A stretch of DNA of 39,479 nucleotides from Acidimicrobiia bacterium (GTDB lineage Bacteria; Actinomycetota; Acidimicrobiia; Spongiisociales; JAENVV01), in NCBI GenBank assembly GCA_041577335.1, contig JBFGJH010000025.1:1-39479 (forward strand). The letters are read 5' to 3'. Positions within the stretch are counted from its first letter, which is position 1, and each line of letters opens with the position of its first letter. The notes under the pieces are model-generated. The model worked only from the letters and a program-made list of their open reading frames with translations. It had not been told where the DNA came from and searched no databases. The position numbers were made by a program, and so were the translations under genes. Shown piece after piece: positions 1,216-37,111 of this stretch.

Positions 1216-2492
1216 TGACCAACGCCTACGACGAGATTCGCGGCGAAGCTGTCCGGCTGGTCGAAGAACGGAAACTCGATCCGAGTCGTGATCGCGATGG
1301 TGTGCGATCGGTCGTCGCCGAGGCAGTCGAGGAGTACCAACGGAGAGCCCACCTCGGGCAGTCGAGAGCGTTGCGTGATCCCAACGAGATGATCAATCGC
1401 ATCGTTCAGGCGATCGCCGATTTTGGGCCGCTCACCGACCTGTTTGCCGCCCCCGACGTCGAGGAGATCTTCATCGAGGGATCGCGAGTGAGCTACATCG
1501 ATGGATCGGGACTGCTCAAAGCCATGCCGGCAGCAACCACCGAGGAGGAGAACCGCCAGGTCGTGAACAGGCTGCTCGCCGACACCGACCGCCACCTCGA
1601 CACGTCCTCACCGATCGTCCAGGCACGGGTGCTGAGCGACACAGCTCGATTGACGGCGGTCATCAGCCCAGTTGCTGACAAGCTTTCGGTGACCGTGCGT
1701 CGCTACGCCCTTCGGAAAGAGACACTGACGTCCATGGTCGAGTTGGGCTCCCTCCCGCCGGCGGCTGCCGGGTTCCTGTGGGCAGTGATGCAGACGAACA
1801 TGAGCGCACTGATCTCGGGGCCGCCGGGTGCCGGCAAGACCTCGATGCTGGCGGCGATGATGACCTCCGCTCCGACCACGCACTGCCTGCGGTGTTGTGA
1901 GGAAGTCCGCGAGCTGCACGTTCCTATCGTGCACGGCTCGTACTACGAAGCGCGCCCGCCGTCGCTCGACGGCTCCGGCGAGGTGGCGCTACGCGACCTG
2001 GTGAAGGTGGTCCTGGCGATGCGGCCCGACCGGATCATCGTCGGCGAGGTGAGAGGTGCTGAAGCCTTTGAGCTGACCCGAGCCGTCAATGCCGGGTGTG
2101 GCTTTGCATGTACGGTCCACGCCAACTCGGCGCGAGAGGCGCTGAATGCCATCGTCAACGCCGCGTTGATGGCCGGGGAGAATGTCTCTGAGCCAATTGT
2201 GCGCAAGGTGTTCGCATCATCTATCGACTTCGTTGTCCACCTTGGCCGAGATTCAGTTGCGCAGTCTGGGGAGTCGGGCCTGCGCCGGCAGGTCCTCGAG
2301 ATTCTCTCGGTGGTACCTGCCATGACCGACGACTTCTCTGCGGAGTTCATTTTCAAGCGTGAAGGCCTTGGCAAACCCATGGAGTGGACCGGCGCGCTTC
2401 CTCCCGAGCAAACGACTGCCATCATCGAGCAGTCACTGCCACCGGATATGACGTTGCGGGCCATCCTCGAGGGACGGGTGAGCCCGCTATGA
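1212..2492 (+). CDS. tadA: TadA/CpaF pilus assembly ATPase
   Basis: Walker A GPPGAGKT, Walker B MRPDRIIVGEVRG, His box TVHANSA. Confidence 0.95.
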   Translation: MMTNAYDEIRGEAVRLVEERKLDPSRDRDGVRSVVAEAVEEYQRRAHLGQSRALRDPNEMINRIVQAIADFGPLTDLFAAPDVEEIFIEGSRVSYIDGSGLLKAMPAATTEEENRQVVNRLLADTDRHLDTSSPIVQARVLSDTARLTAVISPVADKLSVTVRRYALRKETLTSMVELGSLPPAAAGFLWAVMQTNMSALISGPPGAGKTSMLAAMMTSAPTTHCLRCCEEVRELHVPIVHGSYYEARPPSLDGSGEVALRDLVKVVLAMRPDRIIVGEVRGAEAFELTRAVNAGCGFACTVHANSAREALNAIVNAALMAGENVSEPIVRKVFASSIDFVVHLGRDSVAQSGESGLRRQVLEILSVVPAMTDDFSAEFIFKREGLGKPMEWTGALPPEQTTAIIEQSLPPDMTLRAILEGRVSPL

Positions 2493-3385
2493 GGCTGGCC
2501 GCTGCCGCCCTGTCGGCTGTCTTCGTCTATTTCGCGGTCGGATATCTCACCGGGAACGCGCCCCAGATCCAGTTCAGGTCGAGTCGCAAGCAGCAGGTCA
2601 GCCCTCGCCAACTCTGGCTCCAGCAAGCGGGTGTCGAGCTCAGCCCGATTCAGTTCTGGATGGTCTCGCTTGGTGTTGGCTTCCTGGCGTTTCTGCTGTT
2701 GCTCTTGATCACTGGGATCCCGATGGTGGCGCTCGTTCCGTCGGTCGGCCTGGCTTTCTTGCCGAGGTTCTACTTCGCTCGACAGCGTGCGGTTCGCCTC
2801 GCCGAGGTTCAGAAGGCATGGCCCGATGGCCTCCGTGACTTGACTGCTTCGATCAATGCCGGCATGTCACTGCCTCGTGCCATCGAGGCGCTCGCCAACA
2901 AGGGCCCCGATCCCCTGCGGAGGGCGTTCGAGCGGTTTTCGCTGTTGTCACGGACCGTCGGCGTTGTTCCCGCGCTGGAGATCATCAAAGAAGAGGTCGC
3001 CGACGCCACTTCGGATCGAGTGATCGAGGTGTTGATCCTGGCCTATGAGCGGGGCGGCAACATCGTTCCCGAGATTCTCAACGATTTGGCCGACGCCACC
3101 ACTCAGGATCTCTGGACCATCGAGGAGATCCAGTCGGAAGCTCTCGAGCAGCGCATCAATGCCCGCATCGTGTTCGTCCTGCCTTGGTTCGTGCTCATCG
3201 TGCTGACGATGTTCCAAGGCCAATACGCCACGTTTTATCGATCGACGTTGGGCGGGCTGGTGATTCTGGTCGGCGCAGCTCTCAGCCTCTTCGGAATCTG
3301 GCTCGTCGGCCGTTTGATCGCCGAGCCGCCCGAGCGGCGGGTGCTGGGTGGCGCAGCCACGATCCAAGGGGGAGATCGAGTGTGA
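2489..3385 (+). CDS. tadB: TadB (T2SS F-family) membrane platform protein
   Basis: Start placed at ATG 2489 (ATGA overlap with tadA stop); TM helices; WPDGLRDLTASINAGMSL and ERGGNI motifs. Confidence 0.88.
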   Translation: MRLAAAALSAVFVYFAVGYLTGNAPQIQFRSSRKQQVSPRQLWLQQAGVELSPIQFWMVSLGVGFLAFLLLLLITGIPMVALVPSVGLAFLPRFYFARQRAVRLAEVQKAWPDGLRDLTASINAGMSLPRAIEALANKGPDPLRRAFERFSLLSRTVGVVPALEIIKEEVADATSDRVIEVLILAYERGGNIVPEILNDLADATTQDLWTIEEIQSEALEQRINARIVFVLPWFVLIVLTMFQGQYATFYRSTLGGLVILVGAALSLFGIWLVGRLIAEPPERRVLGGAATIQGGDRV

Positions 3386-4344
3386 TCGTCGACGACACGG
3401 GTCGGGTCATTCTGGCGGCGCTGTTGAGCGCGATCGCGGTTGGGGCTCTCGCCACCATGTTCGTCCGCCCAACCCGGCGCCTCGCTCACCGGGTCCGCCC
3501 CTATACCGTGATCAGTCGAACGTCGCTCGGGCGCAGCCCCGACCTGGTATCGCCCAGCTCGGCAGCATTCGGTTCAAGCCAGGTCGGCAAGGTGTTCGGG
3601 CCAATCCTCTCGTCGGTTGCCAACCGACTCGGCCGTGCTGTCGACTCGTCGTCCGAAGACGCACTCCTGCTCAAGCTCCGCAACGCCGGCATGTTTGATC
3701 ACTTACCCGAGAACCAGCGAATCATGGAGTACCGAATCCGTATGTTGGGGGCGGCCGTGGTCGGGGCCGTTGGGTTCGGCTTCCTCGGGTTTGTGGTGTT
3801 CGGTTCGGCCGGGGGAGTGCTGACGTTCGGCCTTCTTGGATTCATCGCCGCCGTTGGCCGGCGACGAGGTGCGGTCGATCGGGCTGTCCAGGAGCGCATC
3901 GAGCGGATGCGGATTGAGATCTACACCGTGAATCAGCTGTTGGCGATGCATATTCGCGTTGGCGGCGGTGTGGTCCAGGCTGTCCAGCATCTCGTATCGC
4001 GTGGAACGGGAGAGGTGATAGGAGAGCTGGCCGAGGCGCTGCGGCTGCATCGCAGCGGAATGCCTGCCGCGGATGCTTTCGAACGGGCGGCCCGCTTGAC
4101 CGCCGACACCAATAGCGCCCGAACGTATTCGCTGTTGGCCGCGGCTGAGGAGCGGGGGTCGGACCTGGCCGATGCCCTGCTTGCGCTGGCAGAGGACGTG
4201 CGCGAGTCGCGCCGGGAGGCGCTCAAGCGGGCGGCAACCAAACGAAGGGCGGCAACCCTCATCCCGACGATTGCCATCCTCGCCCCTATTCTGCTGGGTT
4301 TTGTGGCCGCGCCACTGCCCTCATTTATTTTTGGAAACGTCTAA
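3382..4344 (+). CDS. tadC: TadC (T2SS F-family) membrane platform protein
   Basis: GTG 3382 overlapping tadB stop; AEERGSDLADALLALAEDVRESRR motif; C-terminal TM with LIP...P. Confidence 0.85.
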   Translation: MIVDDTGRVILAALLSAIAVGALATMFVRPTRRLAHRVRPYTVISRTSLGRSPDLVSPSSAAFGSSQVGKVFGPILSSVANRLGRAVDSSSEDALLLKLRNAGMFDHLPENQRIMEYRIRMLGAAVVGAVGFGFLGFVVFGSAGGVLTFGLLGFIAAVGRRRGAVDRAVQERIERMRIEIYTVNQLLAMHIRVGGGVVQAVQHLVSRGTGEVIGELAEALRLHRSGMPAADAFERAARLTADTNSARTYSLLAAAEERGSDLADALLALAEDVRESRREALKRAATKRRAATLIPTIAILAPILLGFVAAPLPSFIFGNV

Positions 4345-4378
4345 TTCGCATGAGACAATGCCCGAACGGAGGTAATCG

Positions 4379-4585
4379 ATGGCAACCCCAACGGCATACG
4401 CCGAGGCAGTCCTAACCAGGGCACTTGACCGCATTTGGCGGGACGAGCGAGGGCTGAACACTGCTGAGTTGCTCGGCAATGCTGCCCTCGCCATCGTTGC
4501 ACTGGTAGCCATCTGGGCCGCGCTTCAAGCGCTGGGCGTTGACATTGTCGAGCTCATTCGCTCCCGCGTCACGTCTGAACTCTGA
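4379..4585 (+). CDS. Flp-type major pilin
   Basis: 68 aa; RDERG|LNTAE class III signal with Glu+5, then a hydrophobic helix; SD GGAGGT at 4369-4374. Confidence 0.8.
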   Translation: MATPTAYAEAVLTRALDRIWRDERGLNTAELLGNAALAIVALVAIWAALQALGVDIVELIRSRVTSEL

Positions 4586-4949
4586 GTCGGGGTACTCCAC
4601 CCCGGCGGTGATCGCAGCGGCCGGAATGGCCATGTTCTTCTTCGTCGCGTTTGCCAATCTGATCGCCTACCAATACGCAATAGGAGCGATCCGCCTGTCA
4701 ATGGACGAGGGCGTCAGAGCGCAAAGCCGAGCCGAGGCACCGGTCAACGAGTGTGAGGCGGTGGCCAACGCCTCCCTCGATGGCTTGTTGGGGGGCTCGA
4801 TGGGAGCAGGGGTCACGATTTCCTGTTCCGACAACGGTGCCACAGTGACTGCCCAGGCGAATGGGACGTTGGATTCGTTCTCTCCCTGGGTTCCCGACCG
4901 GGACGTGTCAGATCTCCTGGCTACTGCTGTGAAAGACGAGCTGCCGTGA
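4539..4949 (+). CDS. TadE-like minor pilin (start uncertain: TTG 4539 or CTG 4575)
   Basis: SESG|YSTPAV followed by a hydrophobic helix, DEGVRA motif, two Cys; position in the tad operon. Confidence 0.7.
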   Translation: MTLSSSFAPASRLNSESGYSTPAVIAAAGMAMFFFVAFANLIAYQYAIGAIRLSMDEGVRAQSRAEAPVNECEAVANASLDGLLGGSMGAGVTISCSDNGATVTAQANGTLDSFSPWVPDRDVSDLLATAVKDELP

Positions 4950-5398
4950 TGTGGAGCAACGACGACGGGAATGCCGTCGTGGAGCTGCCGCTCGCGGTAG
5001 CGGTGTTACTCATTCCGGTGGCGTATCTCGCGCTTATGTTCGCCCCGTGGTCGCAGCACATGAACATGGCCGATCTGGCCGCGTCGGAAGCGGCCCGGGC
5101 CATCGCCACGGCGCCTGATCGAGCCGCCGACCTCGGTGCGGTCAACAACCTCGTAACCACCATCGCCACCAATCACGGGGTCGATCCCGCCGATGTAGCC
5201 GCGTCTTTCTGCGCACAGGTCGACGCTCCAGCTGTGCGAGCGAATTGCCTCGATCTGCGGAGAGGCACCGTCGTTCGGGTCACCGTGACCGTGCAGATGC
5301 CGCTGTTGGAGGTGCCGATCTGGAACGCCGGAGGCGGGACTATCTCGTGGACGGCCACCCACGACGAGCAAGTCGACCTCTATCGGAGCTTCGGATGA
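4946..5398 (+). CDS. TadE-like minor pilin
   Basis: DDG|NAVVE prepilin motif, TM helix, AASEAARA motif, Cys pair; coupled by GTGA overlap. Confidence 0.82.
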   Translation: MMWSNDDGNAVVELPLAVAVLLIPVAYLALMFAPWSQHMNMADLAASEAARAIATAPDRAADLGAVNNLVTTIATNHGVDPADVAASFCAQVDAPAVRANCLDLRRGTVVRVTVTVQMPLLEVPIWNAGGGTISWTATHDEQVDLYRSFG

Positions 5399-5856
5399 TG
5401 CCCGCATCGGTCGAGTCGAGGCTCACCAGGGTCAGGCGGTCGGCGGGACGCGAAGCCGGACAGATCACCTTGTGGGTTTTGGGCCTGTCCATCGGCGTGC
5501 TCATCCTCGGGGGGATCAGCGTCGACCTCTGGCGGGTGTTGGCCGTTCGCACCGAGCTCGGATCGTTGGCCGATTCGGCCGCCATTGCGGGCGGCTCGGG
5601 AATTGACGAGGACGTGTTTCGTGCGAGCCCCGATCTTTCCGTCGCCATCGTCCTCGAGGATGGCCGTGCCCGAGCCCTCGCCGCCCAGGTTCTCGTAGGT
5701 GAGACATTCGCCACCGCGCCCGCCATAGATGTCCAGCCGCAATTGATCACGGTGGTACTCGAGCGTGAGGTCGAATTCACGCTGCTCGACATGGTGGTTC
5801 CGGGAGGTTCGTTTACCGTGAGAGCCACCGGACGGTCGCAACCCCGACCCGGATGA
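5395..5856 (+). CDS. TadG-like (Tad N-terminal domain) pseudopilin
   Basis: ATG 5395 (ATGA overlap); REAG|QITLW...VDLWRVLAVRTELGSLADSAAIAG is typical of the Tad domain. Confidence 0.8.
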   Translation: MMPASVESRLTRVRRSAGREAGQITLWVLGLSIGVLILGGISVDLWRVLAVRTELGSLADSAAIAGGSGIDEDVFRASPDLSVAIVLEDGRARALAAQVLVGETFATAPAIDVQPQLITVVLEREVEFTLLDMVVPGGSFTVRATGRSQPRPG

Positions 5857-20444: not shown

Positions 20445-22205
20445 ATGGACCGTCCTGTGACCCAAATCACCGATTCCAGGCGCTCGAACCTCGGTGCGCA
20501 CCTGATCGTCGACGCGTTCGATGGCTATCGCAGCCGATTCCGCATCATCACGCTGCGATCGCGGCTTCGCTTCGAGCAGCGCGACTGGGCGGCCTCTGCC
20601 GCCGACGCCGTGGAGCGTCTCACCTTGTACCGGGCCACCGTTGATCAGCTCGAACCGGACATCCGGGGGATGCTGGGCGAGCGCATCACCGACCCGTTCC
20701 TATGGGCTGGCATGAAAGCCGTGTATTCGGGCCTGATCGCCGATCGTGACGACTGGGAGCTCGCCGAAACGTTCTTCAACTCCATCACGAGGCGCATCTT
20801 CGATACGGTTGGCGTCGACGAGCGCATCGAGTTCGTCGACACCGACTTCGACACCCCGCCGAGCCGGGCCGGCGAGCCGGTCTACCGCACCTATCGTCGG
20901 TCCGACTCCATCGTCGACTTGCTCGAAGAAATCCTGGATGACGTTTCGTTCGACGCGGCGTGGGCGCACCGATCCTCCGATCTCGACCATGTTGCTGCGC
21001 GAATCAGTGACCGACTTCTCGAGCTCGGGGCACTGCAAGTGGTTGAGCGGGCCGAGATCGTGGGATCTGTCTTCTATCGAGGTCAGTCGGCCTTCGTCGT
21101 TGGCCGTTTGTACTCGGGCTCGCACCGCCTTCCCGTGGTCCTGGCGCTGAGCCACGGCGACGAAGGTATCTATGTCGACGCCGTACTTCTTTCCTCCAAC
21201 GAGGTCAGCATTCTCTACTCGTTCACTCGCAGCTATTTCCATGTCGATGCCCACCGTCCATACGACCTCGTCCGATTCCTCAAGAGCCTCATGCCCCGAA
21301 AACGGCTCGCTGAGATCTACATCGCGGTTGGTGAGAACAAGCATGGCAAGACCGAGTTGTATCGGGACCTGATTCGCCACGTGTCGGCCTCGCCAGAGCG
21401 GTTCGAGCATGCTCGGGGCACTCCGGGCATGGTGATGGTGGTGTTCACCCTCCCCGGCTACGACGACGTGTTCAAGATCATTCGAGATCGGTTTCCGCCC
21501 CCCAAGCGAACCACCCGGCGCACAATCATGGGGAAGTACCGCATGGTGTTCCAACACGATCGAGCCGGTCGACTCATCGATGCCCAAGACTTTCAACACC
21601 TCCAGTTCGACCGTGAGCAATTCACCGTCGAGCTCCTGGACGAGCTGCTCTCCGAGGCGGGTGACACCGTCCGTGTGGAAGGTGACAATGTCGTCATCTC
21701 GCACGTCTACGTCGAGCGACGAGTCATCCCGCTCAATATCTTCGTGAAGGAGGCGGCTCCGGTGGCCGCTCAGGCGGCGGTCGTCGACTTCGGGAAGGCC
21801 ATCAAGGACATGGCTTCCACCAATATCTTCCCTGGTGACCTCCTGCTCAAGAACTTCGGCGTGACCCGGCATGGTCGGGTCGTGTTCTACGACTACGACG
21901 AGCTCACGTCGCTCACCGACATGGTGTTCCGAGCGATCCCTGAGGCACGGGACGAACTCGACGAGATGTCGTCGGCGCCCTGGTACTCGGTGGGCGATCG
22001 AGATGTGTTTCCGGAAGAACACCGCAGTTTTCTCGGGTTGGTGCCCGAGCTGCGGGAGGTATTCGAGCAACACCATGGTGACCTCTTCGAGGTCGAGCCA
22101 TGGCGAGCGATGCAGAAGCGCATCGAGTCGGGCGAGCTCATCGAGGTGTATGCGTACCGGGAGGAGTTGCGACTCCCGGGTGCCGAGGCGCCGCGGGGTT
22201 GGTGA
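20445..22205 (+). CDS. aceK: Isocitrate dehydrogenase kinase/phosphatase
   Basis: ELAETFFNS, SFTRSYF, KHGKTELYR, GTPGMVMVVF, VFKIIRDRF, HDRAGRL, FPGDLLLKNFGVTRHGRVVFYDYDE. Confidence 0.95.
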   Translation: MDRPVTQITDSRRSNLGAHLIVDAFDGYRSRFRIITLRSRLRFEQRDWAASAADAVERLTLYRATVDQLEPDIRGMLGERITDPFLWAGMKAVYSGLIADRDDWELAETFFNSITRRIFDTVGVDERIEFVDTDFDTPPSRAGEPVYRTYRRSDSIVDLLEEILDDVSFDAAWAHRSSDLDHVAARISDRLLELGALQVVERAEIVGSVFYRGQSAFVVGRLYSGSHRLPVVLALSHGDEGIYVDAVLLSSNEVSILYSFTRSYFHVDAHRPYDLVRFLKSLMPRKRLAEIYIAVGENKHGKTELYRDLIRHVSASPERFEHARGTPGMVMVVFTLPGYDDVFKIIRDRFPPPKRTTRRTIMGKYRMVFQHDRAGRLIDAQDFQHLQFDREQFTVELLDELLSEAGDTVRVEGDNVVISHVYVERRVIPLNIFVKEAAPVAAQAAVVDFGKAIKDMASTNIFPGDLLLKNFGVTRHGRVVFYDYDELTSLTDMVFRAIPEARDELDEMSSAPWYSVGDRDVFPEEHRSFLGLVPELREVFEQHHGDLFEVEPWRAMQKRIESGELIEVYAYREELRLPGAEAPRGW

Positions 22206-26500: not shown

Positions 26501-26539
26501 CCACCAGATCCGGCCGGGCCGGACCTACGCTGGGGCGTC

Positions 26540-26869
26540 ATGACCTGGACCGGCGCACAACGCATCCGAGCCATCCTGTTCGTCGCTATCGCCGCAGCCA
26601 TGATCCTCGTTCCTGCCGTCCGATTGATCGACGGGGGCACCCGGTTCGGCTGGCGGATGTACAGTTTCCTCGAGCCGCTGCCGAAGCTCACCCTCGTTGA
26701 CGAGAGCGGTACGCCGAGCGAGATCGATCCCGTCCCATTCATCGGTCGCCTACGCGGAGACGTCCCCTTCGCGTCAGCGCTGCCGCCGCACCTCTGTGAG
26801 GTCGTCTCCGGGACCGCTCGGGTCGTGATCGAATTGGGCGATGACCGGTTTGAGTTCGTATGTCCATGA
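26540..26869 (+). CDS. Small membrane-anchored protein resembling the post-HTTM segment of vitamin K-dependent carboxylases (SdpA-like position)
   Basis: TM helix then RFGWRMYS...KLTLVDESG...IDPVPF...HLC; ATGA-coupled to the HTTM gene. Confidence 0.65.
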   Translation: MTWTGAQRIRAILFVAIAAAMILVPAVRLIDGGTRFGWRMYSFLEPLPKLTLVDESGTPSEIDPVPFIGRLRGDVPFASALPPHLCEVVSGTARVVIELGDDRFEFVCP

Positions 26870-27936
26870 AGCATCTCCACGCCATGGTCACGACGTCATC
26901 CCCCGTCATGCCGGTCGCCGTCGTCAGAATTGCGATGGGAACCATTGCACTGGTCCGCGGGGTGGCCGCCTATTGGCTCCTGTGGCCTCTCACCGACTCT
27001 GAGATCGTCAAAGTGCCCTTCGTGGCATGGATACCGTCGCCGACACCTGTCGTGGTGGCGGTGGTGTTGGGATCCTGGGTGGTGGCGGCCGCCTGCTTCG
27101 CCATTGGCTTCCACACCCGGCTGGCGGGGACCGTCTTGGCTGTTGCCATGGCGTTGGTGCTCTTCGTCGACCAGCAGGCCTACGCCAACCACCTGTACCT
27201 CCTCATCGTCATCGTCGGCCTGCTTGTTGTCGCCGGACCGGCCGGGGCATTGTCGGTTGACGCTCGGCGCGGCGCACCTGCCCCTCCGGCCAACTGGGCG
27301 GTGCTCTTGATCAAGCTGCAAATCACCGTCGTGTATCTGTTTGCCGCCATCACCAAAATCAACGCCTCCTATCTGGCCGGCTCCGTGCTGTCCGCTCAGG
27401 TTGGCAGGGGCCTCATCTCGGCCACCTGGGCAGCCCAGTCGAGTGCCTTGATGCGCGGGACGGCGTTCGCCTCCATCGTCCTCGAAGTGGTCATCGGACT
27501 CTATCTCTGGCATCCGCAGCGACGCTACGTCGCAGTCGGCGCGGGTGTGCTCTTTCACGGCGGTATCACGCTGCTGATGCCGTCGCCCGTCCTGCTTGGT
27601 CTTTTCTCGGCCATCATGCTGTCGTCATACCTCCTCTTCATTCCGCCAACGGTGAAGGGGCGATGGGTGGCAGCACCGGATGGCCTGGCGGCGCGGCTGC
27701 GCCGGCACGATGTGCTGAACGTGCTCGATGTGGAGGACGGTGTATTTCTGACGACCAGCCGACACGGCGAGCACACTGGCTGGGCGGCGCTGGTCCGGAT
27801 CTGCGACGAGCTGCCGGCCTGGTACCTGGCAGCTCCCTTCTTGAGGCTCGTTCCTGCTCGATGGGCCCAGCAGCGATGGCTCACCGCTGTCGTCGATCGA
27901 CCTGCTGAATGGGGCGAAGGCGTTTCCTCCGGTTAG
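26866..27936 (+). CDS. HTTM-domain membrane protein (gamma-carboxylase/SdpB-like) with degenerate DCC-like tail
   Basis: IGFHTR, YANHLYL, LSVD, QITVVYLFAAITKINASYLAG, FHGGI, LGLFSAIMLSSYLLF. Confidence 0.88.
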   Translation: MKHLHAMVTTSSPVMPVAVVRIAMGTIALVRGVAAYWLLWPLTDSEIVKVPFVAWIPSPTPVVVAVVLGSWVVAAACFAIGFHTRLAGTVLAVAMALVLFVDQQAYANHLYLLIVIVGLLVVAGPAGALSVDARRGAPAPPANWAVLLIKLQITVVYLFAAITKINASYLAGSVLSAQVGRGLISATWAAQSSALMRGTAFASIVLEVVIGLYLWHPQRRYVAVGAGVLFHGGITLLMPSPVLLGLFSAIMLSSYLLFIPPTVKGRWVAAPDGLAARLRRHDVLNVLDVEDGVFLTTSRHGEHTGWAALVRICDELPAWYLAAPFLRLVPARWAQQRWLTAVVDRPAEWGEGVSSG

Positions 27937-29403: not shown

Positions 29404-29466
29404 GATGGGTGGCTCGACCTCGTGGGCGGGTTTCTGGTTTTCCTGAGGTTTCCATACAATGAACGT

Positions 29467-30792
29467 GTGTTGATCGATCGCTCAGTTATCGAGTTACTGG
29501 ACAAAGCGCTCACCTCGCAGCCCGCTGATCGAGTTCGCTTCGCGACGGCCCGCGTAACGACCGATCCGCTGCAATTGGTCGACTCAGGCGCCCACCTCGT
29601 TCGATATGCCGCCTATCTCGGAGTACCGGGCGAATCCGAGATCGGCGCCCTCGGCAACGCATGGCGAATGGATTCACCCTACGGAGCGGATCGCTTTGCG
29701 CAGCTGTCGTCCGCGGTCGGCGCCCTCGATCTTCCTGAAGATATCCCTGTACTGGTCGGGTTTTCGTTCGCAAGCGACGGAGCGTCGCGGCCCGAGTGGG
29801 ACGAATTCACTCCGTCCAGCGCGGTCGTCCCTTTGGTGTCGATCCGCACCGATGGCGAGGCGAATCACCTCTATGTCGTGGTGCCGCCAAACGCCGAACC
29901 CTTTGTGGCCCTCGAGCTCCTTCGCCAGCTCGAGGATGATTCGATGCTTCAGGGTGCGAGAGCAGCCGATCATTCCATCGAGTCGCATCCAACGCCGGGC
30001 ACCTGGGAAGGAGCCGTTGCCGACGCAGTGAATTCGATTCGAGAGGGAGGTCTGCAAAAGGCCGTGTTGGCGAGGTCGCTCCACGTGCGGTCAGATGTTC
30101 CCCCCCGTCCGTTTGGAGTCGTTCGGAGGCTGCGATCGGACTATCCGTCTTGCTTCGTCTACGGCTGGCAGGAGGGCGAAGGTACGTTCGTCGGTGCCTC
30201 ACCCGAGCTGTTGGTAGCCCGCCGTGGCAGTCAGGTGCGCTCTCATCCTCTCGCCGGCTCGGCACCTCGCGGGCCCGAAGAAGAAGCCGATCAGGCACTC
30301 GGCGAAGAGTTGATGGCGAGCTCGAAGAACCGGGCGGAGCACCAGATGGTTGTCGATGACATCGCCGAGCGGCTCGCCTCCGTCACCACCGAGTTGCGCG
30401 TCGATCCGACTCCGTCGCTCCGCAAGGTCACCCATGTCCAGCATCTGTCCACCGAGATCGCCGGCACGGTCGCCGACGGGCTCGGCGTGGTCGAGCTTGC
30501 CGGGCGGATCCATCCCACACCAGCGGTCGGCGGCAGCCCTCGGGACGAGGCGCTTTCTTTGATTCGAAAGTCGGAGGGGTTCGATCGGGGCTGGTACGCA
30601 GGCGGAATCGGGTGGACCTCTACCAGCGGCGACGGCGAGATCGCCCTGGCGCTTCGGTGCGCGTTGCTCAGGGGTGACCGAGCTTGGCTGTACGCAGGAG
30701 CCGGCATTGTTGCCGACTCGGTCCCGGCGAGTGAGCTCGAAGAGACCAGGCTCAAGTTCCGCACGATGGTGGACTTGTTGACCGAGGCTTAG
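29467..30792 (+). CDS. menF: Isochorismate synthase
   Basis: KAVLAR, GASPELL, LAGS, KNRAEH, HPTPAVGG, RGWYAG, AGAGIV; men cluster context. Confidence 0.92.
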   Translation: MLIDRSVIELLDKALTSQPADRVRFATARVTTDPLQLVDSGAHLVRYAAYLGVPGESEIGALGNAWRMDSPYGADRFAQLSSAVGALDLPEDIPVLVGFSFASDGASRPEWDEFTPSSAVVPLVSIRTDGEANHLYVVVPPNAEPFVALELLRQLEDDSMLQGARAADHSIESHPTPGTWEGAVADAVNSIREGGLQKAVLARSLHVRSDVPPRPFGVVRRLRSDYPSCFVYGWQEGEGTFVGASPELLVARRGSQVRSHPLAGSAPRGPEEEADQALGEELMASSKNRAEHQMVVDDIAERLASVTTELRVDPTPSLRKVTHVQHLSTEIAGTVADGLGVVELAGRIHPTPAVGGSPRDEALSLIRKSEGFDRGWYAGGIGWTSTSGDGEIALALRCALLRGDRAWLYAGAGIVADSVPASELEETRLKFRTMVDLLTEA

Positions 30793-32456
30793 GTCTCGGC
30801 GACTGCCTCGGCGGCTGCTGCCAGCAGCCCTCGATGGAGAGCTTCGTTCTCACCTCGGTCGGTGACGACCTCGAGTACCTGCATACCTTTGGGCGGGGCC
30901 GCCAATGCGTCGGTGAGTTCTTCGGATCCGCCGATACGCCGATGGTGGGCGCCGAATCCTTCGACGATGGCTGCGAGGTTCTGGCCGTGGGGTACAACAA
31001 GCAGCTCTTCGAAATACTCAGGATGCTCGACCTGTGGCAAGAAATGGAAGATGCCACCCCCATCGTTGTTGACGACGACCATGGTCAGATCGAGATTGAG
31101 CCGGTCGGCGGTGATGAGCGCAGTGGCGTCATAGAGCAGCGACAGGTCGCCCGCCAGCGCGTAGGTGGGACGACCGGCAACCGCCGAGGTGCCCAGCGCC
31201 GACGAGATGAATCCGTCGATGCCGTTGGCTCCCCGATTGCCCATCACCATCGGTGGGTCGTCGCGCCCCGGCCAGAAGCTGTCGACGTCTCGGACAGGCA
31301 TGGACGATGCCACCCACAGCACGGCCTCCGACGGGATCGATGCGAGCGTCAATCGGGCCGTGGCCGGTTCGGATGGGAACGGCAGGGAAGCAAACACCGA
31401 CTGGACGCGATCCTCGGCGCTTCGCCATTGGTGGAGCCAGCGGACCGATCCACCGACGTGGTCGAGCAGTGCAAGAGCTGTCGCATCGGCATCTGCGGAA
31501 ATCATCAACGGCGCCACCGGCTGAGGCTCTCGCCACCCGGGAGTGTCGATGATGATTTGGCGAATCTGGGGATTGGCGGCTTGCCACAGCCCCAGAGCCT
31601 TGGAGGTGGCCGGGGCGCCGACCCGGATCATGACGTCGGGCCGCAGCTCCGAGTCCAGCATCCCAACCCGGGCCAAGGTGTCGCCGGTGCTGATCACGTT
31701 GGGATGGCCGTTGCGGAGATTGGAGAGTGGATCGGCTACCACCGGTGCCCCCATGGCTTCGGCGAGATCAAGCACCGCAAGCAAGGGAGCCGACGTAGGC
31801 CCGGCAACGATCACCACCCGCCGGCCTTCCACCATCTCGGCTACGGCGGTCAGCGCAGTCTGAGACGCAACGGTCAGTCCCGGCTCCACACTCGGTGCAC
31901 GGGGCGGGTCGGGTCGCTGTCGATCGACGGGCGCCAGGGGGTCGCGGAGCGGCACGTTGATGTGAACTGGCCCTGGGCCCATGGCGACCGATTCGTTCCA
32001 CGCCTGGGCAGCAACCCTTGCGACATATGGAAGGAGGCTGGGATCAGGTGTGGCCAGCTCGTGGAACCATTTCGGCGCATTCGCGTAGAGGTGGTTCTGG
32101 TTGATGGCCTGCGGGGCAGCTACGTCACGCAACTCAGGTGGTCGATCTGCGGTGAGAACGATGAGCGGCACCCCCGAGACCGCCGCTTCGTGCACGGCCG
32201 GAGCGTATTCGGCGGCGGCGGTCCCCGACGTGCATACCAGCACAGCCGGCTGCCCCGTGTACTTGGCCGCCCCCAACGCGAAAAACGCCGCCGAGCGCTC
32301 ATCGAGATGCACCGAGTGGGTGATCCGGTCATGGTCGGCGAAAGCGATTGCCAACGGCGTGTTGCGCGATCCGGGAGTGATGGCGGCGTGGCAGACGCCG
32401 AGCGCCGCCAGCGTGCCGGCCAGCGTGTCGGTGAAGAGGTAGTTGGGGTTCGCCAC
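30789..32456 (-). CDS. menD: SEPHCHC synthase
   Basis: GTG 32456; PGSRNTPL, DERSAAFFALG, TSGTA, TADRP, GPVHINVP, NRGANGIDG, GDLSLLYD, NNDGGGIF. Confidence 0.97.
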   Translation of the reverse strand: MANPNYLFTDTLAGTLAALGVCHAAITPGSRNTPLAIAFADHDRITHSVHLDERSAAFFALGAAKYTGQPAVLVCTSGTAAAEYAPAVHEAAVSGVPLIVLTADRPPELRDVAAPQAINQNHLYANAPKWFHELATPDPSLLPYVARVAAQAWNESVAMGPGPVHINVPLRDPLAPVDRQRPDPPRAPSVEPGLTVASQTALTAVAEMVEGRRVVIVAGPTSAPLLAVLDLAEAMGAPVVADPLSNLRNGHPNVISTGDTLARVGMLDSELRPDVMIRVGAPATSKALGLWQAANPQIRQIIIDTPGWREPQPVAPLMISADADATALALLDHVGGSVRWLHQWRSAEDRVQSVFASLPFPSEPATARLTLASIPSEAVLWVASSMPVRDVDSFWPGRDDPPMVMGNRGANGIDGFISSALGTSAVAGRPTYALAGDLSLLYDATALITADRLNLDLTMVVVNNDGGGIFHFLPQVEHPEYFEELLVVPHGQNLAAIVEGFGAHHRRIGGSEELTDALAAPPKGMQVLEVVTDRGENEALHRGLLAAAAEAVAET

Positions 32457-32474
32457 GGATGGAAGAATACCGGT

Positions 32475-33236
32475 ATGACAGCCACGCTCATACCAGTCGT
32501 CGGCACCGGGCCCATCAAGGTGACTGGCGTGCATGGCTTCAGCCAAACCGGTGGCATGTGGCGTGAAGTCGCCGAGCTGAGCGGCCTCGGCATGGTTGCA
32601 CCCGACCTGCCGGGCCACGGGTCCGCGTGGCCAGGGCTTACCCGATGGGAGGATGCGGTGGCGGCCGTCACGACGCTGCTGGGCCCTCGACCAACGGTCC
32701 TGGTTGGATACTCACAAGGGGGACGGGTGGCGCTGGGGGCAGCGCTGGCCACTCCCAGGTCGATTCGTCACCTCGTGCTCATCTCGGTCCGTCCCGGGCT
32801 GGCAGACGCTGCCGACCGTCACGCCCGTCGACAGGCCGATGAGCAGTTGGCTGCTCAAATCGAAGCCGGGGGAGTGGCGGCCTTCGTCGACGCCTGGATG
32901 GGGCGACCCCTGTTTGCCGGGCTCGGCGAACGCCCCTCCGAATGGCTTCGACGAGACCGCGCGATGCGCCTTGTCAACACGGCGGAAGGCCTGGCGGCAG
33001 CTCTCAGAGGCTATGGGCTTGGGGCGATGCCCTATCTCGGGGGGCGGCTGGCCGAGCTCGCTTTGCCAGTGACGCTCGTCGTGGGAGAGACCGACGAGCC
33101 CATGGTCGCGGCTGCCCGCCGGATGGCAGAGCGCATGCCGCACGCGAGCATCCGGGTGGCCCCGGGTACCGGCCATTCAGTCGTCGGAGAGGCACCCGAG
33201 TGGGTCGCAACGCTCCTGGCGGAGCTGGCCGGCTAG
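32475..33236 (+). CDS. menH: SHCHC synthase (alpha/beta hydrolase)
   Basis: VHGFSQTG, DLPGHG, GYSQGGR, RRQADEQLA, VGETD, GTGH; start ATG 32475 (the track's 800-aa ORF is over-extended). Confidence 0.85.
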   Translation: MTATLIPVVGTGPIKVTGVHGFSQTGGMWREVAELSGLGMVAPDLPGHGSAWPGLTRWEDAVAAVTTLLGPRPTVLVGYSQGGRVALGAALATPRSIRHLVLISVRPGLADAADRHARRQADEQLAAQIEAGGVAAFVDAWMGRPLFAGLGERPSEWLRRDRAMRLVNTAEGLAAALRGYGLGAMPYLGGRLAELALPVTLVVGETDEPMVAAARRMAERMPHASIRVAPGTGHSVVGEAPEWVATLLAELAG

Positions 33237-33253
33237 GGAAACCCAGATAGGCG

Positions 33254-33631
33254 CTATGAGAGAAACAAGGCGATGAGCGCGACGAGCGGTGGCAACCCTT
33301 GGACGAGGGCTCCGCGCAGGAGTTTGCGGTTGGACGTGACGAGCACGAATGCCGCCAACACCATGAGCCAACTCGTGAAAATGATGATCGGCACTCCGGA
33401 CGGCTCATCCGCGACTGCAAGGCCCGCTGCCACGAGCGTACCCACCCCGAGGCCGAGGTTGTAGAAGCCCTGGTTGTAGATGGCGAACGCGGTTGCCGCC
33501 GCGGCCTCCTTGGTCCTCACCCCAAACAACCGGTAGACCGCAGGCCTATCCCACAACAAGCTCTCGAGCACAAAGAACCCGATGTGGAGGATGCCGGCGA
33601 GGGTCGCCGCGGCATAGGCAACGGTCTGCAT
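33254..33631 (-). CDS. DUF1304 family membrane protein
   Basis: LHIGFFVLESLLW, NQGFYNLGL, QGLP; four TM helices. Confidence 0.88.
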   Translation of the reverse strand: MQTVAYAAATLAGILHIGFFVLESLLWDRPAVYRLFGVRTKEAAAATAFAIYNQGFYNLGLGVGTLVAAGLAVADEPSGVPIIIFTSWLMVLAAFVLVTSNRKLLRGALVQGLPPLVALIALFLS

Positions 33632-33638
33632 CGACCAA

Positions 33639-33947
33639 TCAGCTCGCTACAAAACGTTTGGCTTCGGCTACGAGGGCCGTCCAACGCTTCACGTCGAAGT
33701 CGGGGATCTTCACCCATTCCCGGAATACTCGACCGTTCGGGGCGAACGGATCTCCGATCCCATCATCGACGAGCTCGGCGACTCGCTGTTCGTGCAGCTT
33801 CACGATGAGATGTCCGGTTTGTGGCTCGAGCGAAGCGAAGAACTCCCCATGCGACCGCAGGCATGGGAAGCCCAACATGGTGGAGCGTTCTACTCCCGTT
33901 TGTTGGAGGAACTTCTCTTCGATCGCTTCGTAACCCGCGACGGACAT
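33639..33947 (-). CDS. TfoX-N/MmcQ-like small protein
   Basis: MLGFPCLRSHGEFFA, LIVKL, FAPNGRVFREWV; start ATG 33947. Confidence 0.7.
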   Translation of the reverse strand: MSVAGYEAIEEKFLQQTGVERSTMLGFPCLRSHGEFFASLEPQTGHLIVKLHEQRVAELVDDGIGDPFAPNGRVFREWVKIPDFDVKRWTALVAEAKRFVAS

Positions 33948-33970
33948 GGGGGGCACGCTACCCCATCTCG

Positions 33971-34846
33971 TCAGCCCAGCGTGGCGCCGACCGCCATCGA
34001 GATGCCCATGAGCAGGTGGAGGCGCCCAACGCCCTTGAGGACACCGATCAGCTTGGCGCCGTCGACCTCCGTCGCCACCGTTCGTACCAGTGGGGCAGCC
34101 CACGGAGCCCAGAACAGTGCAATGCCCGTGGCCAAGGGGACGAGGCGAGCGATCACCAGCACGAACAGGCTTGCGAATGCCCCCCAGATGAGGACGGCGA
34201 AGAGCGTTCTGGTCCGATCTCGGCCGAGAATCACAGCCAGGGTTCTCTTCCCGGCGGCTGCGTCGGTCTCGATGTCCCTGATGTTGTTGGCCACCAGGAT
34301 CGCCGTCACTGGCAGTCCCACCGGTATCGATAGGAGCCAAGCGTCCAGAGGAGCGGCGTTGTCGTACACGTACCGCGTGCCAACGGTGGCGACGACGCCG
34401 AAGAACAGAAACACAAAAACCTCGCCCAGACCCCGGTATCCATATGGTCTTGGGCCACCGACATACCCGAGCATTGCCACCGTTGAGATGACGCCGATTA
34501 CAGCAACGATCCAACCGGCGACCGTGATCAAGTAGACCGCAGCCAACGCCCCGACGGATACTGCAATCCACGTGGCGACCCACATCGCCCGAGAGGTCAC
34601 CAATCCAGTGGCCACTGCTCGAGCCGGCCCGACCCGGTCCTCCGTGTCGGCTCCCCGCTTGGCATCGGATGCGTCATTGGCGAAGTTGGCGCCGATCTGA
34701 ATGGCGAGAGCCGCGACAAGCACTGCCGCGAAGACATCCCAGCGAAACACTCCGTCTCCTGCTGCGAGACCCGAGCCAACGAGGACCGGCACGATCGCCG
34801 CGGGAAGGGTGGCCGGCCGGGCTGCCTCGACCCAGATGCGGAACAT
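33971..34846 (-). CDS. menA: DHNA polyprenyltransferase
   Basis: ARPATLPAA, NFANDASD, YGYRGLGE, NNIRDIETD, GKRTLAV. Confidence 0.96.
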   Translation of the reverse strand: MFRIWVEAARPATLPAAIVPVLVGSGLAAGDGVFRWDVFAAVLVAALAIQIGANFANDASDAKRGADTEDRVGPARAVATGLVTSRAMWVATWIAVSVGALAAVYLITVAGWIVAVIGVISTVAMLGYVGGPRPYGYRGLGEVFVFLFFGVVATVGTRYVYDNAAPLDAWLLSIPVGLPVTAILVANNIRDIETDAAAGKRTLAVILGRDRTRTLFAVLIWGAFASLFVLVIARLVPLATGIALFWAPWAAPLVRTVATEVDGAKLIGVLKGVGRLHLLMGISMAVGATLG

Positions 34847-34852
34847 CAGTGC

Positions 34853-35743
34853 CTAGTAATGCCAGGGGAACGGGGAATAATCCTGATCCCGCTTTTCCAG
34901 GAATGCGTCCCGGCCCTCCTGGGCTTCGGGGGTGCCATACGCCAGCCGCGTCGCTTCTCCCGCAAAGAGCTGCTGGCCGACCAGCCCATCGTCGGGAAGG
35001 TTGAATCCATACTTGAGCATGCGAATCGCAGTCGGCGACTTCGACAAGATGATTCGCCCCCACTCCAATGCAGTCGCCTCGAGTTCGTCGTGTGGCACCG
35101 ATGCATTGGCCATGCCCATGGACACTGCTTCCTCTGCTGAGTAGTCGAAACCCAGGAAGAACACCTCGCGAGCGCGCTTCTGGCCGATCTGGCGGGCCAG
35201 CAACGCCGAGCCGTATCCAGAGTCGAACGACGCCACGTCGGGGTCGGTCTGCTTGAACACCGCGTGCTCGGCGCTGGCAATCGTGAGGTCGCAAACAACG
35301 TGGAGGGAGTGACCGCCGCCGACGGCCCATCCTGGCACCACGGCGATCACCACCTTCGGCATGAACCTGATGAGGCGCTGCACCTCGAGGATGTGCAGTC
35401 GCCCGAGCCGGGCGGGATCCGGGCCATCATCGCCCTCGTATTGATAGCCGTCTTTTCCCCGGATTCGCTGGTCGCCACCGGAACAGAACGCCCAACCTCC
35501 GTCCTTCGGTGAGGGCCCATTGCCGGTGAGGAGGACACACCCAACGTCGGATGTCATGCGAGCGTGTTCGAGTGCGCGATACAGCTCGTCGACGGTGTGG
35601 GGCCGGAAGGCGTTGCGCACGTCGGGACGATCGATGGCGACGCGGACCACGCCGGCGTCGGTGGCGCGGTGGTAGGTGACATCGGTGAAGTCGAAGCCTT
35701 CGACTTCGACCCACGACGATTCATCGAACAGCTCAGAGACCAT
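34853..35743 (-). CDS. menB: 1,4-dihydroxy-2-naphthoyl-CoA synthase
   Basis: RNAFRPHTVDEL, FCSGGDQ, LHILEVQRLIR, GGGHSLHVVCD, SFDSGYGS. Confidence 0.98.
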   Translation of the reverse strand: MVSELFDESSWVEVEGFDFTDVTYHRATDAGVVRVAIDRPDVRNAFRPHTVDELYRALEHARMTSDVGCVLLTGNGPSPKDGGWAFCSGGDQRIRGKDGYQYEGDDGPDPARLGRLHILEVQRLIRFMPKVVIAVVPGWAVGGGHSLHVVCDLTIASAEHAVFKQTDPDVASFDSGYGSALLARQIGQKRAREVFFLGFDYSAEEAVSMGMANASVPHDELEATALEWGRIILSKSPTAIRMLKYGFNLPDDGLVGQQLFAGEATRLAYGTPEAQEGRDAFLEKRDQDYSPFPWHY

Positions 35744-35785
35744 CGCAACCTTCTCATCGGCGAACGCCGATACTGTAGTGACCCC

Positions 35786-37111
35786 ATGGCCGGCTACTCA
35801 GACCTGGCGGTGCCCGACAGTGCCCGCCCCTTCATCACCGACGAACACCGCACGTATTCGTTCGGCGATGTCGCGGCGATGGTGCGCGAGCGCGCTGCCG
35901 GATTCGAAGCCAACTGGGGCGAGGTGATCGCCGTTACTCCAGACAACACCATCGAGTCGATCATCAGTTGCCTGGCGGTATGGGAGGCCGGAGGCGTGCT
36001 TCAGCTCGTCAACTCCCGCCTCACTCCGGGTGAGATGGCCCAACAGCTGGAACAGACCGGAGCGAACTGGGCTGGGCACACCGAATCTCCTCGACCGACG
36101 ACGTCGGGCGGCCCACTTCCTGACGATCATCCGGGCCTACCCCCTGCGTTGATCGTCTCGACCTCTGGCACGGGTGGCCGGTCGCGCCTGGTGGAGTTGA
36201 CCCGGGATAACCTGCTGGCCTCGGCTGAGGCGTCGAGCCAACACCTTCGACACACACCCGAGGACCGATGGCTGGCGGTGCTGCCGCTCTTCCACGTGGG
36301 AGGATTCTCGATCATCGTGCGCTCAATGCTGGTCGGGAGCGAGGTCGTGCTGCGGCGCTCGTTTGAACCTGCCCAGGTTGCCCACGACCTTCATCGAGTC
36401 ACTCTCGCCTCGCTGGTCGGTGCGATGCTCCCGAGAATCCTGGCTGCCGACCCAGGGCCCTACGCGGGGCTTCGGGCGGTCCTGGTCGGAGGAGGGCCCA
36501 CCGCCCAATCCACCCTCGACGAGGCAGTGGCCGCGGGCCTTCCGGTCTTGTCGACCTACGGCATGACCGAAACGGCCAGCCAGATCGCCACCGCTGCGCT
36601 CGGCGACGGTGCGCGGCGGAGGGCTCGCGCTCTGCAGGGCGCCGAGATCCGCATCGGTTCCTCCGGCGAGATCGAGGTTCGGGGACCCATGGTGAGTCGC
36701 CGGTATGTGGGTGAGCCACCTCGCGGCGCCGACGAATGGTTCCGCACCGGTGATCTCGGCACGATCGATGCCGATGGCTACCTGCGCGTCACCGGGCGGC
36801 GCGACGACCTCATCATTTCAGGGGGCGAGAACATCGTGCCGTCCGAGGTGGAGGAAGCGCTCGAAAGGGTCGAGGGAGTCCACGCCGCGGCCGTGTTCGG
36901 TGTGCCCCATCCCGACTGGGGACAGCAAGTGGTGGCGGCAGTGGTCGCCGACATTCCCCGGTCGGCCATCGAAACAGAGGTTCGAGGACATCTCGCCGGC
37001 TACAAGCTCCCGAAGGGGTGGCTGGAAGTCGAGGAGCTGCCGCGTAACCAGCTCGGCAAGGTCGACCGCAGGGCGCTCAAGCTCATGTTGGAAGAAACAG
37101 ATGGCCGATGA
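35786..37111 (+). CDS. menE: o-succinylbenzoate--CoA ligase
   Basis: STSGTGG, LPLFHVGG, TYGMTETASQ, FRTGDLG, GRRDDLIISGGENI, GKVDR; divergent from menB. Confidence 0.9.
   Translation: MAGYSDLAVPDSARPFITDEHRTYSFGDVAAMVRERAAGFEANWGEVIAVTPDNTIESIISCLAVWEAGGVLQLVNSRLTPGEMAQQLEQTGANWAGHTESPRPTTSGGPLPDDHPGLPPALIVSTSGTGGRSRLVELTRDNLLASAEASSQHLRHTPEDRWLAVLPLFHVGGFSIIVRSMLVGSEVVLRRSFEPAQVAHDLHRVTLASLVGAMLPRILAADPGPYAGLRAVLVGGGPTAQSTLDEAVAAGLPVLSTYGMTETASQIATAALGDGARRRARALQGAEIRIGSSGEIEVRGPMVSRRYVGEPPRGADEWFRTGDLGTIDADGYLRVTGRRDDLIISGGENIVPSEVEEALERVEGVHAAAVFGVPHPDWGQQVVAAVVADIPRSAIETEVRGHLAGYKLPKGWLEVEELPRNQLGKVDRRALKLMLEETDGR

Follow-up and report, generated by a model that had tools for sequence, protein, structure and literature searches.

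Two adjacent genes of an acidimicrobial contig, here called A and B, raise the question of whether an enzyme resembling the eukaryotic gamma-glutamyl carboxylase (GGCX) can be assembled from two small bacterial proteins whose genes lie in the reverse of the order found in GGCX. The pair lies within a stretch of 39,479 nucleotides that was analyzed in full (hereafter the window), and a sequence-only reading had interpreted it as a split, order-swapped carboxylase-like system. Among the bacterial GGCX homologues, MloH is the only one with a described reaction that we found in the literature searched. We infer that A and B together constitute a quinone-dependent modifying enzyme, and present here the evidence for the two parts, for their association, and for the chemistry that they might perform.

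Organization of the locus

Genes A and B are present in one copy each in the host assembly, and the closely coupled arrangement described previously is evident in the sequence and its open reading frames as an ATGA overlap at 26866-26869; a second in-frame ATG for gene B is located at 26860. The coordinates of all features discussed are collected in Table 1. A relative of gene A at 49% identity is labelled Acidimicrobiia. The pair had also been credited with its own -10 element, TACGCT, and the hexamer is indeed present. A scan for two-hexamer sigma-70 promoters upstream of gene A found none, and the recurring pattern TANNNT fits a leaderless -10 element, being positioned 5-9 nt before a candidate start of gene A at 39 of the 101 distinct loci, compared to 5-10 of the 101 in five shifted controls; it is found ahead of A in five of the six closest loci (L001-L006). 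Because of this enrichment over the shifted controls, TACGCT is likely to be the -10 element of a leaderless promoter for gene A.

Table 1. Positions of genes, putative functional residues and the candidate promoter element in the window.
Feature	Coordinates	Strand	Description or basis
TACGCT	26526-26531	+	8 nt ahead of gene A ATG; candidate leaderless -10 element
Gene A	26540-26869	+	109 aa small subunit; one membrane helix, then compact beta/alpha domain
A, membrane helix, residues 5-30	26552-26629	+	structure model, alignment
A, putative active-site loop, residues 35-42	26642-26665	+	alignment, predicted contacts with B
A, R72	26753-26755	+	invariant in 143/143
A, C86	26795-26797	+	99% conserved in 143 relatives
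A, C108	26861-26863	+	99% conserved in 143 relatives
Gene B	26866-27936	+	356 aa from ATG at 26866; eight-helix HTTM domain and tail
B, N108-H109	27187-27192	+	equivalent to GGCX N159-H160; alignment to GGCX
B, K164	27355-27357	+	equivalent to GGCX catalytic base K218; alignments to GGCX
B, E207, H231, F247	27484-27606	+	equivalent to GGCX D263, H287, F299; alignment
B, decayed DCC1-like (thioredoxin-like) tail	27658-27900	+	without cysteines; predicted cytoplasmic

Gene B encodes a GGCX-like HTTM protein

The identification of B as an HTTM protein with GGCX motifs holds in sequence and structure comparisons alike. The Pfam HTTM model matches residues 17-261 (E 1.5e-27; 97.3 bits against a cut-off of 27.7), and the domain is present in 47 of 47 relatives. 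Searched against the PDB as a single sequence, B finds GGCX only (E 4.5e-4), and GGCX is likewise the only significant match of the 47-sequence profile (E 3e-26, GGCX residues 50-318). In the structure model (pLDDT 92.7), residues 14-258 contain eight long helices, and all 15 Foldseek matches at E<=1e-3 are to GGCX (9wf3, rmsd 2.6 over 273 columns). B stops after these eight helices, the equivalents of GGCX TM1-8, and so ends ahead of the substrate-binding segment, as had been noted.

The catalytic residues of GGCX are conserved in a set of 127 distinct B sequences, some of which are cut by contig ends. K164, whose codon had been proposed to encode the equivalent of the GGCX base, does align to K218 and is conserved in 127/127; N108 and H109 are found in 120 and 124 of the 127, and E207, H231 and F247 occupy every ungapped row (125/125, 124/124 and 121/121 respectively), the H287 equivalent being treated here only as a conserved position. 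In GGCX, N159 and H160 are described as binding the glutamate carboxylate (PMC12647623) and F299 as forming the CO2 pocket, with residue roles drawn from PMC12647623 and bioRxiv 10.1101/2025.02.09.637231. Alanine mutants of GGCX Y395 and W223 are reported to impair carboxylation (PMC12647623); the W223 position (Y169 in B) is Phe or Tyr in 124 of the 127 sequences, and a hydrophobic residue takes the place of GGCX N290.

A feature absent from the earlier reading is the tail of B, the last ~90 residues of which match a profile of 38 CxxC-bearing tails at E 8e-14. Pfam DCC1 is recognized in 13 of the 47 relatives, not including the studied copy, and the 127 B proteins comprise 38 with a long tail containing CxxC, 14 with a long tail lacking it, and 75 with a short one.

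Gene A corresponds to the segment of GGCX that B lacks

Gene A matches no Pfam or NCBIfam family, either alone or across 143 aligned members, and no description of this small-subunit family was found in the literature searched, which lay mostly outside subscription papers. A nine-sequence profile run against 1.84 billion representatives places 666 clusters in the family at E<=1e-3, and matches in the best 150 of the 666 clusters are 93-262 aa long. In the 262-aa match (P0062) a lasso-B2-like domain is fused with one resembling A, which may be a read-through; among 8000 candidates there were no longer, fused forms of A (weak evidence). W38 and M40 are invariant among the 143 aligned members; conservation reaches 90% or more at P25, R35, G57, P82, C86 and C108, and in the membrane helix position 21 is Gln in 84% of relatives and P25 is kept in 98%. 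The two cysteines that had been noticed in the small ORF are C86 and C108, and their near-universal retention makes an internal disulfide of the outer domain of A likely.

The proposal that the upstream ORF supplies the missing GGCX segment is substantiated by profile comparison, according to which A is homologous to the part of GGCX that comprises TM9 and the beginning of the lumenal domain, at about residues 363-490. When hhalign was used to compare the A profile with a profile of the C-terminal regions of 15 fused homologues from bacteria, the probability was 96.8% (E 2.6e-10) and the score 63 over 94 columns. Of 40 column shuffles none scored above 17.6, and of 40 controls in which only the columns after the first 40 (the helix region) were shuffled none scored above 37.5. 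In a blind search of 401 genomes the A profile gave matches in five; apart from family members, it picked out two fused GGCX-like proteins, in each of them at the last helix and the beginning of the lumenal part. One of the 15 fused proteins aligns to GGCX 363-505 at E 1e-8, and the register obtained through it places position 21 of A at Q374, P25 at P378, W38 at W399 and M40 at M401, with C86 within about one position of C450. R72 falls at R436, at the edge of the well-aligned part and transitively, the bridging fused bacterial protein having Gln there. GGCX Y395 is not kept, the corresponding position of A being variable (Ala in 48%; T34 in the studied copy). A review of GGCX describes P378 as structurally important (PMC5343777), and R436 is described as binding the backbone of the substrate peptide (PMC12647623).

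The likeness of the small ORF to the post-HTTM segment is thus clear in profiles, whereas structure comparison gives only a weak match for A by itself. The A model (pLDDT 91.5) finds no Foldseek match at E<=1e-3, and in a wide structural search its match to GGCX (9bum 407-490; Z 4.2, rmsd 2.9, 64 aligned) ranks 12 of 48,161, tied with unrelated chains. The A profile run directly against PDB sequences does not reach GGCX, and the Pfam model of the lumenal domain is not reached by any family member, the best E being 0.076.

The two genes are obligately adjacent and widely distributed

That the two genes should co-occur is borne out in both search directions. Scanning species genomes with a motif produced 54 matches, of which 42 were confirmed, and A lies directly upstream of B in all 42; the reverse test recovered 80 of 142 confirmed metagenome loci, with A upstream in 77 and the remaining three cut off, so that 77 of 77 informative loci have the pair. 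These counts are not independent, as 131 loci collapse to 51 lineages. The junctions overlap in 40 of 41 non-duplicate loci, by four bases in 22 of them, with the B start chosen as that nearest to the stop of A.

By record labels, no fewer than seven phyla carry the pair (Acidobacteriota, Actinomycetota, Chloroflexota, Gemmatimonadota, Planctomycetota, Verrucomicrobiota and Binatota), including cultured Nocardiopsaceae. One locus labelled as a beta proteobacterium (L014) is nearly syntenic with the Chloroflexota-like metagenome loci L149, L177 and L179; it may be mis-binned, and was left out of the phylum count. Among 301 genomes from the host's class, 51 have an HTTM gene of some kind, and the best 30 HTTM loci comprise 11 with a clear A upstream, one with a weak A, 10 fused genes and eight of other types. 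The pair looks accessory, since the single genome of the same genus (98% complete) has no match to it.

In a tree of 70 proteins, which is unrooted and from which no order of events is claimed, a branch with 99/99 support separates the 47 B proteins and two divergent split partners from 14 fused proteins, three DUF5819 partners, three other split partners and one further HTTM protein. The fused GGCX-like proteins form a clade of their own (100/99). The tree omits one duplicate, L061 among the DUF5819 partners, and three B copies that are frameshifted or cut (L006, L014 and L022). The alignment shows N159/H160 to be kept in B and absent from the six other split partners.

We note several variants of this theme. 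B is frameshifted in L006/L081 (G150) and in L014, and A in L133, reflecting either decay or assembly error. Two Acidimicrobiia-like loci carry a second, distant HTTM gene near the pair (L048:3170-4180 and L120:2444-3586). Further split HTTM systems have other small subunits, some of about 200 aa that score near or below the DUF5819 cut-off (L058, L059, L060), some matching A only in the helix and loop (L091, L092, L099, L101), and some very short (L010, L054). It seems that several distinct families represent the post-HTTM segment.

Relationship to known split and fused systems

The closest architectural precedent is the pair formed by DUF5819 (PF19136) and an HTTM-DCC1 protein, for which a preprint (bioRxiv 10.64898/2026.08.19.745780) predicts, without experiments, a heterodimer resembling GGCX and MloH, and which it proposes as a bacterial vitamin K-dependent carboxylase. 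The genes of that pair are adjacent, the N-terminal helix of the small subunit fills the position of the GGCX helix and clamp, and the partner is an HTTM protein with a DCC1-like tail; A and B similarly comprise a small, helix-anchored subunit encoded next to an HTTM(-DCC1) protein with which it is predicted to associate. Membership of A in DUF5819 was considered and rejected: none of 143 members matches PF19136, and there is no match in the host genome. The profile probability of A against four Streptomyces-type DUF5819 proteins is 2.5% (a shallow profile), DUF5819 proteins are about 190 aa long as opposed to about 110 aa for A, and the three DUF5819 partners compared, which lack N159/H160, are separated from B by the 99/99 branch. 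We conclude that A-B forms a clade of its own, whose glutamate-binding site is more like that of GGCX than is the site of the DUF5819 partners compared. The split two-gene design had already been predicted for DUF5819, and this precedent limits the surprise of the architecture; the small-subunit family and its clade are new here.

Relative to GGCX itself (PDB 9BVK, 9L21, 9WF3, 9BUM), the pair has the same fold for TM1-8 and keeps N159, H160, K218, H287, F299, W399, M401, R436 and P378, with D263 present as Glu. The catalytic set of Lys218, an acidic residue at 263, His287, Phe299 and Met401 is accordingly complete, whereas the glutamate-binding triad of N159, H160 and Y395 lacks its third member, that position being variable. 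GGCX is one chain, whereas here B covers GGCX 50-318 and A about 363-490, as two chains in swapped order. The propeptide-binding and Arch domains of GGCX are absent from A-B, and no match to PF22777 was found in the host genome; the likely internal disulfide of A would replace C99-C450, and the DCC1 tail is optional.

The fused bacterial GGCX-like proteins (PF05090 with PF22777), which include MloH, provide in their C-terminal part the closest profile match to A, and share N159, H160 and K218 with B. They differ from A-B in being single chains, in retaining W223 and D263, in usually having Tyr or His at position 395, and in carrying Gln (15/15) where A has R72. No NRPS is near the A-B pair; the called genes of the window contain neither an NRPS nor an SdpC-like gene, in agreement with the earlier reading.

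In Bacillus, SdpA and SdpB are likewise a pair. These proteins, together with LinG, an HTTM protein of linaridin biosynthesis (PMC9927463), and its partner LinL, provide examples of an HTTM protein and a small partner gene in peptide maturation. Assignment of A-B to the SdpA/SdpB type was rejected, as none of the 143 A members matches the SdpA model and no SdpC is present among the called genes of the window; weak matches to the SdpB model occur in three of 47 B proteins, the studied B not among them. Nor, in 131 loci, does LinE or a linaridin precursor family recur beside the pair, and the alpha/beta hydrolases of the window are not among its recurring neighbors.

The A-B clade is the smallest version of the enzyme so far, at about 260 + 110 residues, and in retaining nearly the whole catalytic set without the propeptide clamp it can be used to find out which elements suffice for vitamin K chemistry. 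Its recognition also assigns a role to a previously unannotated family of at least 666 protein clusters.

Predicted complex and proposed chemistry

The predicted complex of B(1-266) with A scores 0.90, and its best control 0.00; the 0.90 mark is reached by 116 of 157 solved pairs and by 2 of 215 mismatched pairs. Separate runs agree in at least 98% of contacts, the pLDDT of the partners is at least 86, and residues 35-44 of A contact residues 103-108 and 155-169 of B. The expected A-B interface is therefore predicted, and the prediction may pass through the likeness of the split halves to solved GGCX. A review (PMC5343777) describes GGCX that was cut between the last two helices as then assigned and that stays together, the passage making no mention of activity. 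Overall, it is very likely that a split, order-swapped, GGCX-like heterodimer of A and B is real.

What this heterodimer does is less certain. The likeliest reading, to which we give a probability of about one half, is that a Glu or Asp of some exported peptide or protein is carboxylated with menaquinol and O2 as cosubstrates. In the predicted complex the helix of A would complete the ninth helix, and its loop 35-42 would cap the pocket for quinone and CO2 on the membrane's outer face. By analogy with GGCX, K164 would deprotonate menaquinol, and addition of O2 would generate a strong base that takes a proton next to the carboxylate held by N108/H109; R72 would grip the peptide backbone, and CO2 held by F247 and M40 would then be added. 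An aspartate substrate has a precedent in the bacterial homologue MloH, which is described as carboxylating Asp (bioRxiv 10.64898/2026.08.19.745780; PMC12647623). As Y395 and a propeptide clamp are lacking, the enzyme likely reads a short local segment of its substrate, and this substrate probably differs between lineages. The loss of Y395, the replacement of W223 by Phe or Tyr and of N290 by hydrophobic residues, and the absence of the propeptide-binding domain argue against a carboxylase. Also counting against it are the lack of a neighboring gene common to the lineages, the negative searches of the host genome for a lasso-B2 gene, a precursor-like motif and VKOR, and the association of other HTTM systems, such as linaridin LinG, with dehydration instead of carboxylation.

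The host carries menaquinone genes, with menF, D, H, A, B and E-like genes at 29.4-37.1 kb of the window, and no VKOR for epoxide recycling was found in its genome (90.75% complete). The menaquinone region (29422-37111) contains menF, menD, menH-like, menA, menB and menE-like genes in mixed orientation, and the menH-like gene (32475-33236, +) is opposite menD with an adjacent start.

Alternative explanations

Several other readings must be weighed against carboxylation. The same heterodimer and the same base could yield a carbanion that is re-protonated or eliminates, making the pair a peptide epimerase or dehydratase like LinG/LinL and SdpB/SdpA. LinE, LinG and LinL are reported to be genetically tied to dehydrobutyrine formation (10.1101/2020.07.09.196543), linaridin D-amino acids are described as lacking a known enzyme (PMC10125368), the pair sits within a RiPP cluster in four loci, Y395 is lost, and the best of the weak SdpB-model matches among the 47 B proteins has an E of 4.4e-6. 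We nonetheless regard this reading as unlikely, as A-B keeps the carboxylate-binding N159/H160, which the three DUF5819 partners tested do not, together with the CO2-pocket F299 and M401, and neither a LinE-like hydrolase nor a Thr-rich precursor recurs beside it. Quite unlikely, in our view, is a carboxylate-bearing surface glycan or lipid-linked sugar as substrate, for example a uronic acid carboxylated or epimerized at C5. Such a substrate would fit the glycosyltransferases (GT2, GT4, GT87, PMT) that make up 13 of 160 nearest neighbors (up to four nearest called genes in each of 49 lineage representatives), against a host background of roughly 1% of genes (16 GT2 and 15 GT4-type matches), the latter being our own estimate from one genome rather than from matched genomes. 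Genes for nucleotide-sugar epimerases or decarboxylases and for sulfatase-like and flippase-like proteins also recur near the pair, and a GT2 gene lies two genes upstream in the window. These glycosyltransferases are nevertheless confined to nine of the 49 representatives, the other 40 having none among the nearest genes; several of the GT87 cases come from Chloroflexota that are related to one another and rich in paralogues, GT87 finds no match in the host, and the invariant R72 maps to a peptide-backbone contact.

It is improbable that the pair is simply a redox device, a menaquinol oxygenase/epoxidase or O2 sink, perhaps DCC1-coupled, that transfers no group: the CxxC DCC1-like tails of 38 of 127 B proteins and the frequent insertion of the pair alone among housekeeping genes would suit such a function, but the tail is absent or cysteine-less in many members, the studied B included, and the substrate-binding N108, H109 and R72 stay conserved. 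The one explanation that would dispense with the heterodimer, in which A is an unrelated small membrane protein merely co-transcribed with B, draws on the lack of a significant fold match for the A model alone and of any member reaching the Pfam lumenal-domain model; set against the controlled profile homology, the blind recovery of fused proteins, the adjacency to B in both search directions and the predicted interface, it is very improbable.

Genomic neighbors and candidate substrates

No neighbor is common to all 51 lineages represented by the 131 loci, and there is thus no general substrate gene. The gene calls around the pair come from a simple caller of our own and should be taken as approximate. 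We rejected the idea that the pair forms a functional cluster with the menaquinone, CBS-BON, DUF3105 or alpha/beta hydrolase genes nearby, as these do not recur among the 131 loci, a DUF3105 neighbor being found only in the 82%-identical locus L105; GT87 as an obligate partner was also rejected, the host genome having no match.

A RiPP-like cluster is present in four related Thermoanaerobaculia loci (L013:3362-11158, L015:3062-10718, L016:1-6384 and L161:1-7602), and encodes a B2-type peptidase, PqqD, a radical SAM protein, a nucleotidyltransferase, a secreted lamin-tail protein and an unassigned protein that may be kinase-like. The A-B pair is inside this cluster on the opposite strand, its position relative to the precursor varying. 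The precursors are conserved, 49-53 aa long, and have a C-terminal tail with a single Glu following Val, which fits the preference of GGCX for hydrophobic-Glu (PMC12647623); this lineage thereby offers a concrete candidate substrate of 50 residues. It is possible, if rather doubtful, that the pair is specifically a minimal two-chain gamma-glutamyl carboxylase, distributed over at least seven phyla and forming Gla in exported peptides or proteins without the need for a propeptide, with the Thermoanaerobaculia Val-Glu precursors as its first identifiable substrates; if so, these precursors would define a class of Gla-containing RiPPs. The host genome (90.75% complete) showed neither a lasso-B2 gene nor a precursor-like motif.

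Other neighborhoods are of a different character. In five loci of the same Thermoanaerobaculia lineage (L139, L142, L150, L152 and L162) the pair is alone between recF and dnaN, antisense within the dnaA-dnaN-recF-gyrB block. Tad/Flp pilus genes flank it in Nocardiopsaceae and in two other loci. The window also has a Tad/Flp pilus locus at 19-5856, 20 kb from the pair, with an ATPase, two T2SSF proteins, a small Flp-like pilin and TadE/G-like genes. At 20445-22205 of the window is a gene for the isocitrate dehydrogenase kinase/phosphatase AceK, a protein known mainly from Proteobacteria, here located in an actinobacterial genome.
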